NCBI GenBank assembly: GCA_964016885.1
Contig: OZ024749.1
Span: forward strand, 28,892,001 to 28,956,000
DNA: 64,000 nt
Reading direction: 5' to 3'
Source of the DNA: Eledone cirrhosa
Lineage: Eukaryota
Both the position numbers and the translations under genes were made by a program. Positions 9,410 through 58,000 of this stretch are shown here, piece by piece. Position 1 is the first letter of the stretch. Each line of letters opens with the position of its first letter. A model generated the notes under the pieces. The model searched no databases. It was not told the origin of the DNA and saw nothing but the letters and a program-made list of their open reading frames with translations.

Positions 9410-9459
9410 AGTTTCAGAAGATCCCGTTAAGGTGAAAGCAGCGATTCTTTGCTTAAACT
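9410..9459 (+). ncRNA. Hammerhead-like motif with CAGAAGA core (family A copy)
   Basis: agttt-CAGAAGA-t-ccc(gttaa)gg-t-GAAA-gca..tgc-TT-aaact. Confidence 0.5.
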
Positions 9460-9737
9460 TTAATCTGTTATTTTAATAAATATATATACACATAGTTAAC
9501 CCTTTTTTCGTCATTTATCTGGGTAAAGATTGTGGTTATTATCTGCTATGACATCTGGTGAGGGTTTAACCGAAAGCTGTCCTTGTGTGTGTGTGTGTGT
9601 GTGTGTGTGTATATATCGACTTTTTTTAGCCGTTGGTATATAGTCTTTAATGCGATGAAATACCAATGATGGTTGGAAGATCACTGATGAAGGACTAACT
9701 TTATTCATATATATATATATATATATATATATATATA

Positions 9738-52000: not shown

Positions 52001-55000
52001 TTCCTTTGAGCATCAAATTATATGCCTGTAAGATACTGGGCTATTTGACATGTCTTTGAGCATCAGATTATATATCAGGAAGGTACTGGGGGTATTGATA
52101 TTTCTTTGTTGCCAACCACTCGAGCATGAAACAGGTTGTACTGGGTTATATGGTACCAGTAGCAGACAGAAGCCTGACCTGACCAGGGTCTGGTGAGGGA
52201 GCCAGTTTAGTTGCCAACCACTGGACCATGAAACAGGTTGTACTGGGTTACATGACACCAGTAGCAGGCAGAAGCCTCACCTGACCTGACCTGGTATAAA
52301 GTGTAATGTAGACTAGAGACTAAAAAGGGAGACAATCCACTATTTTTATACCTGAAAAATAAACTCTAGTTAGATAATGACTGGACACTGGGTTTTATCT
52401 AGGTTTTTTTCCAAGACTGGGCAGTGTAAATTGTTTAATGGAGAAAATATTGTCATCTGTTTTGTCTGAGTCTGAGAGAACATTGTAATCTATCTTTTTG
52501 TCTGAGTCTGAGTAGCGAGATCCTTTTTGTCTCTAAGGGAAGTCCTTACTATATACATCTGCCTGTACTACATCTGTCCCTCTGCCCACATTTGTCTGTC
52601 TGTCTATATTATATACTATATCTGTTTGTCTCTACTGCATCTGTCTGAATTAACATTCCTGTTTGAAAATCCTCTCTATTCCAATGTTTTTTTTCTGTTG
52701 CAGTATGATATTCGCCAAAAAGCTTTGAAGTTAACAGCAAATAGTATGTATGGGTGTTTGGGATTTAGTTCATCCAGATTTTATGCAAAACCCCTTGCAG
52801 CTCTTGTGACAGAAAAAGGAAGAGAGGTAAGCACTATCTTAAATAAATGTACATTTATAGCAGTTATTTTTTTAAATATAAAATTTCAAAACCTTTATAT
52901 GTATCTCTGGCATGTTGCTGACTCCTGATTGGTAACAGAATTGGATTTTTATTACTTTTAACCTACATTATTTATTTTCCTTCTTTTGAAAATTTCAAGA
53001 AATAATATACTAGAGTTTAAATTGTACTGGTAGATAAATCACACCTCCATTTTACATACAACATTTACAATCATCATCATCATATACCATCATCATCATA
53101 TACCATGTATTTTGAACTGAGGTTTTGTAGATCCAGTAGATAAATCACACCTTCATTTTACATACATTTACAATGTACCATATATTTTGAACTGAGGTCT
53201 TTTAGGTCCAGTAGATAAATCACACATCCATTTTACATACATTGTAAATGTATCATATATTTTGAATTGAAGTTTTGTAAGTTCAGTAGATAAGTCACAC
53301 CTCCACTTTATATGCGACATTTAAAATGTACCATATATTTTGAACTAAGGTTTGTAGGTCCAGTAGATAAGTCACATGCTAGTTTTTCAGATATTTTTGT
53401 GTAAAACACTACAACATATATACATGAGTATATACACTATTTGGCTTATTTTACCAAATGTTATGCAGTAATATAACTCTGGTATTTCAATAGTTTAATA
53501 TTATTTCATGATTTTCTTTTATTCCAGATTCTGATGAAAACTAAAGATTGTGTTGAAAAGGTAAATTTAACTTAGTTTTTTCATTTCTTCAGATATATCA
53601 TCAAATTTAGTTGCTTCTTACAACACACAGGGATACAGTGTACCTATTCTAAACCAGATATACACAGGGATACAGTGTACCTATTCTAAACCTGATACAC
53701 TCAGGTATACAGTGTACCTATTTTAAACCAGATACACACATTGATACCTATTCTAAACCAGATATGGTCCACTGAATCATGTAGAAAGTGACTAATGTAA
53801 TGTAATTTGATTTTAGCCATTATTCCAGACTAGATTACCTCCCTTTAAGAAACAACACTATTTTCATTGTTGCTCTCTTAGCACTGGCTATGACAGCAGC
53901 AGATCTTTATGTTGACAAATTAACTCTTTTATTTCCATATTTCTAATGAAAGACACCACTGACTGATTATTAAGATGGTATCTGGAAAGTTCTTATGTGA
54001 GATTATATTGGAAGATATTAAATTAGATAGGAACAGTTTAAAATGTGTGGTCCTGTTCCATAAAACCAGATCCAATTTTGGGTGGATGGGCAGAACCAAC
54101 CAGCAGGAAACCCAGGGGGTAGACCCCAAGCAAGATGGTTGGATAACATACATGAGCTTGGCTGGTCTTGCTTGGAGACCCAGCAGGATCAGTTGGAAAC
54201 GGTTGCTTCTGACAGGACCCACTAGAAGGAATATTTGAGGTATCTTCACCCACAACCCTCTCAAGAAAAGGAGGAGGATTGGTATCTAAATGGTTAATTC
54301 TTCACCATTTCACTACTGTTTACCTTTTCCCACACCTTCTTCAGTAATTCTTTACTCAACATGTATCAACCAAAACCTCAGAATCTATCAAATCTTAAGT
54401 TTATTTTGTCTTCTACTTGACAGCAAAGTTCTTGTCATTCCTGGTGGCTTGCCTTACTGTTGTGTCAGGTGATGCCTGTGAGGGTTAGGGATGTTACAGT
54501 GCCTTAGCCTCACCATTACCCATGCTAGTGAATTGATGGTCATTTTTGTTACCCTCCCCCCTTGTTTTTTCTTTCTCTCGCTTTGGTTGTGAGGTTCTTA
54601 GAAATAGTTAATTGTATTTATTATATGTGTTTATATTTTCAGTCTAAAAGAATTGTGAGCAATTTGTAATGTTATATATGTATATATTTAAAACTTAATA
54701 AAAAATTTATTTGCCTCTTGTGTTTTTCAGATGAATTATGAAGTTATTTATGGCGACACTGATTCTATTATGATAAAAACCAATTCTTCTGATTATGAAA
54801 CATCCTACAAGACTGGTAATATTGTGAGTATTGATCACTAGTTTCAGGAATTCTTGTGAAATTCTTGTAAAATTTACAGCTCACACCCATATATAGGCCT
54901 CCTACAGCTCACATCCATATAGGTTTAGCTGGCCTCCTACAGCTCGCACCCATATAGGTTTAGCTGGCTTCCTACATCTCACACCCATATAGGTTTAGCT

Positions 55001-58000
55001 GGCTTCCTACAACTCACACCTAGGTTTAGCTGGTTTCCTACAGCTGATACCTATGTAAGTTTAGCTGGCCTCTTACAAAGTTGCATTTCATAATAGGTTT
55101 CTTTAGTGTTTTAATAAGGGCCCCAGTCCTATAATGTTGTTACAGCTGACACCTTTGTAGGTTTGGCTGGCCTCCTATGAGATTGCATGGCAGGAGGTTT
55201 ATTTTTTTTTTTTTAAAGAAAGTTGTGCGTTCCAGTTTTATAAGGAAATATAACCTTGAATGAAACATCTTGCTCAAGAATACAATGTACCATCCTTTTC
55301 AGGATTCAAACTCATAACATTGTGATCCTCAGCCCCAACACTCTAACCACTAACCCACGACTTTGTGGTGATCCTGAAATACTTGCTTAAGAACTTTACC
55401 AAGCCTGTCATTATTTTTGCCAGGTTCTAATAGATCCAGCTTGTTTTTACCCAGTGACAACTGACAAGATTTGAACTGGTATAAGAAAAACAAAAAATTT
55501 TTCTATGCATTGTCAGAGATTTAGTGAAGTACATAGGCTTAATGGAATAAAGCTTAGGGCTGGATTTGGCCCAGGGCCGTAATTTTCTAGCTTCTGATGT
55601 AGAGGCTAGCTATCTGCATTGGGATGCTGTCTGGCTTGAGTATAAACTAAAAAGAAAATAATGATTTTTATTTTTTATATTTTCCTAGATCAAGACCGAG
55701 ATTAATAAGTTATTTCGATTGCTAGAGATTGATATTGATGGTATATTTAAATCAATGTTATTGCTGAAAAAGAAGAAGTATGCTGCTATTAATCTCCAGA
55801 AGAATGCCGCTGGTAAAATAGTTGAAGTCCAAGAACTGAAGGGACTTGATATTGTTAGACGAGACTGGTGTGATTTGGCTAAAATGACTGGAAAGTAAGT
55901 AAAACAGCTTGTAATGACTCTGCTTTATTTTCCACCTGGAATTGGTCCACGTGTTTTATTTCTAACTAATGGCTCAATGCTATCAATAAATGATAACAAT
56001 AGTGATCTTTTATTTTGGGGCCCAGGATTGGTTTGTCACAGGATCATTAAACAAGGGTTCTTCTCTGATAATAAAATGAATAAATGAATATATATATATA
56101 TATATATATATATATATATATATATATATATATATATATATATGTAGGCAGAGAAAGCAGACATTAAATTTAAACACACATGGTGTATTATTATAGTTGG
56201 TATTAAAATAAAGAGTTTATGAAGATGAGTAATTTAGTGATTTATTGTTTAGGGTGTTCAGTTCAGATTATTAACGTGAATTGGATTCCCAGTGATGCAT
56301 TGTACCCTTGGGCAAGATGCTTTATTTTACATTTAAAGACATGTTTTTTTTTAAAGCTAACTTTAAAAATGTTGTTTCTTAAATAGTTTTACTGTGACAG
56401 AAATTTTATCAGGAAGAATTCAGGATGTAATTCTTGAAAATATTCACATGGAATTGACCAAAATTAGTGAAAAAGTCTCCAAGAAAGAGTATCCTATTGA
56501 AATGTATATTATTACAAAGGTTGGTCTGATTCACATATCTCTCTCTCTCTCTCTCTCTCTCTCTCTCTCTCTCTCTCTCTCTCTCTCTCTCTCTCTCTCT
56601 CTCACATATATATATAATTAGTACAGATTAAAGTTTAAGCAAAGAATTTCTGCTTTCACCCTATACGGGATCTTATGAAACTACAGGACTTAGTTTAAGA
56701 AGAGCCTGTATAGGTTGAAAGCAAAAATTCTTTGCTTAAACTTTAATCTGTACTAATTATAAATATTTGCTCTATGGGTTTATTTATACTTATATGTATA
56801 TATATATGTGTGTGTGAATCATCATCATCATCATTTTACGTCCGCTTTTCCCTGCTTGCAAGAGTGGGACGTATGTATGTATATATATATATATATATAT
56901 ATATATAACGGAGGAAATGTGGTAAGGAACCAGGTGGACCATAACGCACCAAAGTACTCAATACTTAGGGTAGTAGAGTGGGTAATAGGAATGAGTAGGA
57001 CCCCGACGACTGAGCTCAAGCCGTTTCAACGGCTAATTCTGGACTAAAAGTTTAGTCCAGAATTAGCCATCGAAACGGCTTGAGCTCAGCCGTCGGGGTC
57101 CTACTCGTTCCTATATATATATATATATATATATATATATATATATACAATCCTTATCAAGCCCTCTTCTGATTTCGGTCTTTGTATTTAATTATTACTA
57201 TATATATATGTATCCCGGGTTCAATCAGGGGTAACCATAGTAAGTAAGGTTCTCAATACATAGCAGAGTATACATGTTTAATACAGAAATGGCTTCTACA
57301 GGACTAGAACTGTTTCATTCGAAGGAAATCATCAGCAAAGCAGAGGTTAACCAATATATATATATATATATATATATATATTGGTTAACCCCTGCTTTTG
57401 TTGTAAAATGGCGCTAATAGGCTTGTTTGGTGATATTGTTGTTGTGGTCATTGGTGTTGTAATAATTGTTGTTACCAAACTTTCCATTCCAGCAACTGAC
57501 TAAAAACCCCGAAGACTATCCTGACAAGAAAACCCAATCCCATGTACAGGTTGCCCTTCGAATGAATAGTAAAGGTGGCAAGAAGTTAAAAGCAAGTGAT
57601 ACTGTACCTTATATAATCTGTCAGGTAAGTTCGTTAACAACATATCTCTTATGATTTAGAATAGATACACTTGTAAATGTGGTTGACATTAGGAAGAGCA
57701 TTCAACTATAGAAACCAAGCCAGAAACAGTTACCTCTCTCTCTCTCACTAGTCTCAAAAGTTCTGAAAATAGTCGTAGGCACTGCCCCTCTTTCCCACTA
57801 GTCGCTGGAGCTCTGAAAATAGTCATATGCACCGTAACTCTCTCCCACTAGTCTCAGGGGCCCGGAAAATAATCATGGGCACTGCCCCTCCCTCTTTAAA
57901 CAGACGGTACAAAAAAAGAGAGCTCTGCAACGTTTTATAATTTAGTTTTATCAATTCCAGGATGGTTCCAATGCTAGTTACCCACAGAGGGCATATCACC

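Follow-up and report, generated by a model that had tools for sequence, protein, structure and literature searches.

A family-wide U4A change in the putative hammerhead motif of an abundant Hydra-type Penelope-like element in Eledone cirrhosa

We analysed a stretch of 64,000 nucleotides (nt) from Eledone cirrhosa (assembly GCA_964016885.1, contig OZ024749.1, positions 28,892,001 to 28,956,000 of the forward strand), hereafter the window, in which a first-pass annotation had reported six dispersed copies of a hammerhead-like motif with a noncanonical CAGAAGA core. All six are found at the places claimed, and all six have A at position 4 (A4) of the box that in canonical hammerheads reads C3 U4 G5 A6 N7 G8 A9. 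Four are exactly CAGAAGA, the copy at 56632 on the minus strand being CATAAGA and that at 56692 on the plus strand AAGAAGA. The copies are arms of the pseudo-long terminal repeats (pLTRs) of an autonomous Hydra-type Penelope-like element (PLE), not of a retrozyme, and A4 characterizes this element throughout the genome.

The six copies amount to five insertions: one lone arm (9410), three head-to-head pairs (11370–11570, 38738–39063 and 56603–56803) and one passenger (30111–30232). The lone arm (9410–9483, plus strand; motif 9410–9459, A4 at 9416) starts at the first base of stem I, the likely transcription start, and finishes in (TA)n with a short 3' end. In the first pair an inverted arm (11370–11497, minus), comprising leader and the 3' half of the motif, adjoins a sense arm (11498–11570, plus; CAGAAGA core, A4 at 11502) which has lost its 5' stem I strand, the AG being absent, because it is placed at the inversion junction. 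The passenger is a plus-strand pLTR fragment (motif 30158–30208, A4 at 30164, aaatt replacing aaact) within a separate nonautonomous repeat unit that also contains an inverted leader fragment (31377–31426, minus). In the second pair a pLTR arm (38738–38977, minus; motif 38811–38762, A4 at 38805) with a damaged stem II lies head to head with a leader arm (38978–39063, plus). The third represents an older sister subfamily, with loop II GTATA and loop III GAAATTCTT, and consists of a minus-strand arm (56603–56683; motif 56682–56632, A4 at 56676) and a plus-strand arm (56690–56803; motif 56692–56742, A4 at 56698); later insertions separate the latter from the remainder of its leader (57130–57201, plus). 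A complete three-way junction had been proposed for each copy. Pairing of 5 + 3 + 4 bp is indeed possible, but some copies have the altered stems just described. Similarly, the AT-rich "tail" shared by the copies is real, yet it is no separate tail: it is the 5' leader of the element, which follows the motif in the pLTR. No Rfam hammerhead family matched in the window at E ≤ 5, and a descriptor that requires CUGANGA would, as anticipated, miss the A4 family. Other repeat families contribute hammerhead-like motifs of canonical or near-canonical form at window positions 8242 (plus), 6114 (minus), 11583 (plus) and 57294–57341 (minus).

The assignment to a Penelope-type pLTR hammerhead homologue is borne out by full elements, protein motifs and the position of the motif. 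The full-length partners with reverse transcriptase (RT) plus GIY-YIG that had been predicted were found, with an intact open reading frame (ORF) of 709 amino acids (aa). At locus L047 the order is pLTR, ORF, pLTR with the sense motif in both repeats, and the sense motif flanks the ORF on both sides here and in six of 20 ORF-picked loci; the ORF is intact in 11 of these 20, which were chosen for long frames. Where motifs are paired on opposite strands, the surrounding stretches share one ORF. The motif lies ~200 nt ahead of the ATG and ~930 nt beyond the stop. The monomer measures ~3.26 kb, or ~2.5 kb once spliced, Hydra-clade elements being generally <3 kb, and the 3' untranslated region (UTR) holds a 750-nt GT..AG intron (L047:3934–4683; L408–L417) with two acceptors 4 nt apart. 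The spliced-type pattern has 295 genomic matches, and the intron is kept in 57 of 60 ORF-picked elements. Full elements also show an imperfect tandem duplication of ~125–137 nt directly upstream of the motif (L047:4433–4690).

The 709-aa protein contains RWR37 (K to R), DKT115, YRDD, CNCRNRADC564 (CxCx5C), IVY583..YIG598 of GIY-YIG type, CDLC662 (CxxC) and CKH690 (CxH); GxK[FY] is lacking and, as read by eye, so is CCHH. Pfam and PDB profile searches with this protein returned no match. Its predicted model (predicted local distance difference test score, pLDDT, 84) has telomerase TERT as top fold match, and over its full length it is 40% identical to P0103, which carries PF01541, the GIY-YIG family. 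The closest outside protein is P0001 (57%), and no closer family appears among the best-scored matches in the E. cirrhosa genome. Insertion into (TA)n, pLTRs, inverted 5'-truncated copies and an optional tail are all observed. The protein motifs and the target fit the Hydra clade, a class assignment made from these characters. Among 51 young elements, whose median divergence is 1.05%, shared variants occupy 0/671, 2/672 and 24/672 columns at codon positions 1, 2 and 3, respectively. This bias, together with the low divergence, indicates that the family was recently active and selected for its protein. The sister subfamily is ~80% identical near the ORF end.

These elements bear directly on the earlier suggestion of a nonautonomous, retrozyme-like family spreading as ribozyme-processed circular RNA, which is largely refuted and which we consider extremely improbable. 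Most copies are short and without an ORF, and 13 of the 30 loci examined hold the motif inside a small noncoding unit, as such a family would have it. Against this, full elements with the intact ORF carry the sense motif on both ORF sides, no head-to-tail arrays of small units were seen among the loci read, the short copies stop at two PLE-type sites and are often head to head, and the ends of the small carrier unit resemble those of DNA elements. The short copies are arms of the autonomous element, either truncated or folded back. The carrier is a nonautonomous unit of ~650 nt with a terminal GC hairpin and CTAG, ends of a Helitron-like kind (window 29421–29739, 30087–30237 and 31286–31455; other loci, L002–L006, L012, L013, L017, L019–L022). 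It has picked up and propagated a motif-bearing pLTR fragment, is common to the 13 loci mentioned, and looks like a minor, DNA-type vehicle.

To describe the state of position 4 we searched the genome (3.0 Gb) with a 33-nt motif pattern leaving positions 4 and 7 open, which gave 16,485 exact matches against 0 for the reversed-pattern control; a 25-nt pattern right after the cut site gave 29,755. Element positions are hereafter counted from C3 = 0, with the predicted cut between +40 and +41. A4 was present in 100/100 among the 33-nt matches listed, in 51/51 ORF-picked elements and, within 100 consecutive arms chosen by their 3' flank, in 82 of the 84 that cover the position, the two with T being fold-back junctions. 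Other letters in native context total 180, about 1%, and by eye the 100 listed among them comprise 41 T, 36 G and 23 C. In the sister subfamily A4 is found in 26/26 pattern matches and in 12 of 14 flank-picked copies, the remaining two being of junction type. Forty evenly spaced 10-kb stretches contained 3 arms only, too few for statistics. Thus, U4A is fixed in the family and is no local decay: the genome-wide consensus has A4 in both subfamilies and is not CTGAAGA. U4A predates the split of the two subfamilies.

The canonical core CTGAAGA was nevertheless matched 1,171 times. We inspected 20 matches (L348–L367): 18 are members of the family, an inverted arm lies immediately upstream in 17, and native stem I is found in none. 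Fold-back junctions read GGGATCTTC-T-GAAGATCCC, and U4 appears on one strand there because of the self-complementary TTC.GAA around position 4. The CTGAAGA matches are therefore mostly fold-back junctions, insertion products rather than ancestors. We rejected U4 as the ancestral family state, given these junction products and the mixed letters of the ~1% non-A copies. Retention of A4 as a splice acceptor (TTTCAG) was likewise discarded: the intron joins ~102–106 nt upstream of the motif, and joining at the motif was seen in 0 of the 100 matches listed among the 295 of spliced type.

In position and orientation the motif matches the pLTR hammerheads of Hydra elements, of which it appears to be a homologue. 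The C3 to A9 box departs from the canonical one only in U4, which is A family-wide, and G12 A13 A14, A15.1-U16.1 and H17 are present (GAAA...CUU), each position unchanged in 50–51 of 51 elements. Seventy-nine related metagenome loci (38–43% protein identity) yielded 76 matches in 61 loci versus 3 on the antisense strand, with position 4 being U in 75, C in 1 and A in 0. Their 38 distinct motifs share some details with ours, a U.U pair flanking stem II being found in 23/38 and U17 in 4/38; published Hydra hammerheads (PMC8557442, file S2) frequently have U at the cut site, after A9 and before G12. Other details differ, namely G15.2-C16.2 here versus C-G in 37/38, and loop III is 9 nt long in the A4 family. 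No further canonical hammerhead motif was found inside the L130 monomer. The case for homology is built on the position of the motif, its retained core bases and details of Hydra type, folding energy forming no part of it. The predicted minimum free energy is −8.8 kcal/mol versus −4.8 for the hammerhead fold. A4 favours and strengthens an alternative UUUCA/UGAAA pairing, which hides GAAA, and the stability of the monomer fold does not exceed that of shuffled sequences (z about 0 for main-family copies). A crude covariance model built from 23 canonical relatives gave E about 1 for one copy, did no better on canonical local motifs, and is not discriminating. No covariation was seen in stems I–III; the stems are invariant, and no compensatory change was observed within the family.

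A second Hydra-type PLE family of the same genome has the canonical CUGANGA core (window 11163–11222, plus, 11020–10960, minus, and 63950–63885, minus; L491–L540). In it U4 is present in 48/48, N7 varies and stem II is diverse. Its 38,503 exact 31-mers genome-wide, set against the 29,755 exact 25-mers of the A4 family, make it at least as abundant, and the idea that a dead ribozyme raises copy number finds no support in this comparison.

How the copies arise can be read in part from their ends. Inverted end copies, as had been claimed, are present in the three head-to-head pairs of the window. Among 100 consecutive arms, 51 have a short 3' end (about +69) and 49 a long one (about +154), a distribution that fits two internal RT start sites, such as those reported downstream of the hammerhead in an anole PLE (PMC11167929). 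In fold-backs the long arm can be either one, which suggests the head-to-head joining of two complementary DNAs (cDNAs). The 5' ends are concentrated around the beginning of stem I (21/100 arms within −10..−1, nine of them at −5). A non-native G precedes the first A in 18/36 arms, a set mixing loci chosen in different ways (background 18%), and also in 4/4 main-family loci with both arms complete (L457, L459, L473, L060). Reverse transcriptases can copy the cap, and the initiator consensus underlies our calling TTAGT/TCAGT initiator-like. We infer that the extra G would be a copied cap at a transcription start in this setting and that the motif likely begins at this capped start. Internal promoters of PLEs have been documented (PMC2377424).

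With moderate confidence, we put forward that an autonomous, recently active Hydra-type element carries this hammerhead homologue in its pLTRs, that U4A likely cripples cleavage, that transposition likely uses uncut RNA, and that the fold is probably kept as a leader or promoter structure. Transcription likely begins under an internal promoter at the first base of stem I (−5); the resulting capped RNA would have 202 nt of ATG-free leader ahead of the 709-aa ORF. The RT-endonuclease would nick (TA)n, and reverse transcription would begin inside the leader at the two sites (about +69 and about +154). Synthesis would run past the predicted cut site (+40/+41); short arms would result where it stops at the 5' end of the RNA, long arms and full elements where it continues into the upstream monomer of a read-through transcript. 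Head-to-head joining of two cDNAs would likely follow, often via TTC.GAA around position 4, which would write T at that position on one strand. Transposition would thus proceed from uncut RNA. In published mutagenesis, single and double mutants of the CUGA turn all had low activity except a C3G/G8C swap (PMC9901934). Low activity is predicted from these effects of U4 changes, and expected also from the alternative UUUCA/UGAAA pairing that A4 favours; the A4 hammerhead may well be crippled in self-cleavage, a claim we make with reserve. For the anole PLE, catalytic mutants of the hammerhead did not impair insertion in vitro (PMC11167929).

Part of the evidence lies in how the motif is conserved, which also bears on a second explanation, that of a dead motif without structural role. 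Here U4A would have drifted into a master lineage, conservation stemming from youth or from overlap with a promoter or RT-binding site. Between the subfamilies 0/11 core, 0/22 stem and 0/4 other junction columns differ (0/37 non-loop), versus 4/14 loop columns (p = 0.004). In the flanks 14/123 columns differ, and the non-loop versus flank comparison (p = 0.04) is a modest signal. That subfamily differences are confined to two loops is not what plain sequence constraint predicts. Moreover, the region is invariant in read-derived contigs while the upstream flank varies, with no variant at ≥8% across L047 1520–1604 versus 14 in 1419–1519 among the rows listed; X5 and X6, other organism codes with 7 and 3 contigs and few differences, were not taken as evidence of other species. 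A dead motif agrees, nevertheless, with the 1.05% median difference among young elements, with the nonsignificant contrast between motif and UTR in that set (p = 0.26), and with the absence of compensatory change and the z-score about 0 noted above. The motif also takes up the initial 51 nt downstream of the likely start, the region of PLE internal promoters (PMC2377424), and promoter overlap could account for part of its constraint. On balance we regard this explanation as unlikely.

The same invariance lends itself to a third explanation, in which A4 is tolerated, cleavage is rescued by a helix III dimer or by the element's own protein, and the core is under selection. The unchanged core bases and stem pairs between subfamilies (0/37) and the paired G15.2-C16.2 swap relative to 37/38 relatives argue for it. 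Dimer pairing through helix III is feasible (cofold −24.5 kcal/mol), protein-assisted cleavage of a PLE hammerhead has been published (PMC11167929), and natural core variants are known (PMC3088659; PMC4209133). In contrast, a full pairwise scan shows no second-site rescue of CUGA mutants (PMC9901934), and A4 occurs in 0/76 related-element matches and 0/48 of the canonical family. The A-U stem I is weak, the triplet is CUU and a competing fold exists, and a cut at +40/+41 would probably strip the likely cap from the ORF mRNA. We treat this explanation as a tentative one, less probable than crippled cleavage. That a natural A4 hammerhead, fixed in tens of thousands of copies of an active retroelement, cleaves when dimerised or protein-bound, as a switch decapping its own mRNA, seems to us slightly more doubtful still.

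Several observations weigh against crippled cleavage with transposition from uncut RNA. The predicted cut site is crossed in 97/100 arms, but such copies prove nothing: nearly all 52 arms of the canonical control family cross it too, and we discarded crossing as a sign of a dead motif because that family behaves alike. Microhomology or a (GA)n context accounts for some of the Gs that precede the start, and the set in which they were counted is a mixed one. The four loop differences between subfamilies are two adjacent pairs, and in the 51 young elements the variation of motif columns (0/54) versus UTR columns (36/927) does not differ significantly. Every catalytic base except U4 is retained, and helix III is longer than in relatives and able to pair between two copies. 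In published systems, cleavage by the anole PLE hammerhead requires its protein (PMC11167929), and a U4C viroid variant retains enough activity in vivo (PMC3088659). The A4 motif may possess some activity in vivo.

The role of PLE hammerheads in transposition is an open question (PMC8557442, PMC11167929). In this genome, at least 16,000–30,000 arms of a family with intact ORFs carry the A4 change, which is predicted to be disabling, and a similarly abundant family has the canonical core; the pair offers a natural test of the need for the ribozyme. If the A4 motif cleaves, the hammerhead core consensus widens, and descriptor searches overlook whole families; if it does not, the genome provides evidence that cleavage is dispensable. 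In addition, a descriptor search would count about a thousand spurious "canonical" cores that arise at fold-back junctions.

The remainder of the window contains other repeats and frames. Two consecutive frames with RVT_1 matches (43213–45369, minus) form a broken RT like that of long interspersed nuclear elements, and an open frame at 26461–27258 (minus) has a PHD-finger match at its start. Tandem arrays are found at 2311–4800 (60-nt units) and 24435–25900 (33-nt units). Weak tRNA-like matches, probably heads of short interspersed nuclear elements, lie at 29749–29806 (plus), 62144–62201 (plus) and 28768–28825 (minus).

Literature listings and passages, which did not include the work of Lunse et al. 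on PLE hammerhead variants, showed no natural U4A hammerhead. The Hydra-clade PLEs (Craig et al. 2021, PMC8557442) share with the A4 family the RT with C-terminal GIY-YIG-type domain, DKT, RW[K/R], the CxCx5C linker, CxxC, CxH, (TA)n targets and a sense pLTR hammerhead, and often U.U flanking stem II and U at the cut site. In contrast, the hammerheads of their file S2 are all CUGANGA with a loop III of 1–3 nt, whereas the A4 family, with a CAGAAGA core and G15.2-C16.2, has a loop III of 9 nt, an intron of 750 nt in its 3' UTR, and a motif other than the one listed for Hydra-1_Obim. Canonical hammerheads are stated there to be universal in Hydra elements, a universality from which the A4 family departs. 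The minimal and dimeric PLE hammerheads (Cervera and De la Pena 2014, PMC4209133) resemble it in the type I pLTR motif, the extra nucleotide after A9, the many solo copies and opposite-strand pairs, and the low expected activity. The core variant described in the passages of that work is U3-A8, with none at position 4, and helix III of the A4 family is larger, not minimal. With Poseidon PAc of the green anole (Frangieh et al. 2024, PMC11167929) the likeness lies in two internal RT starts downstream, which explain the optional tail, and in the use of uncut RNA for insertion. The PAc hammerhead, however, is canonical, protein-assisted and overlaps its ORF start, whereas the motif studied here has A4 and lies ~200 nt before the ATG. 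Finally, non-LTR retrozymes (bioRxiv 10.64898/2026.07.22.740005) share a type I hammerhead akin to those of PLE pLTRs and many short noncoding copies, but they are tandem noncoding units, while the A4 family is autonomous, dispersed and often head to head.

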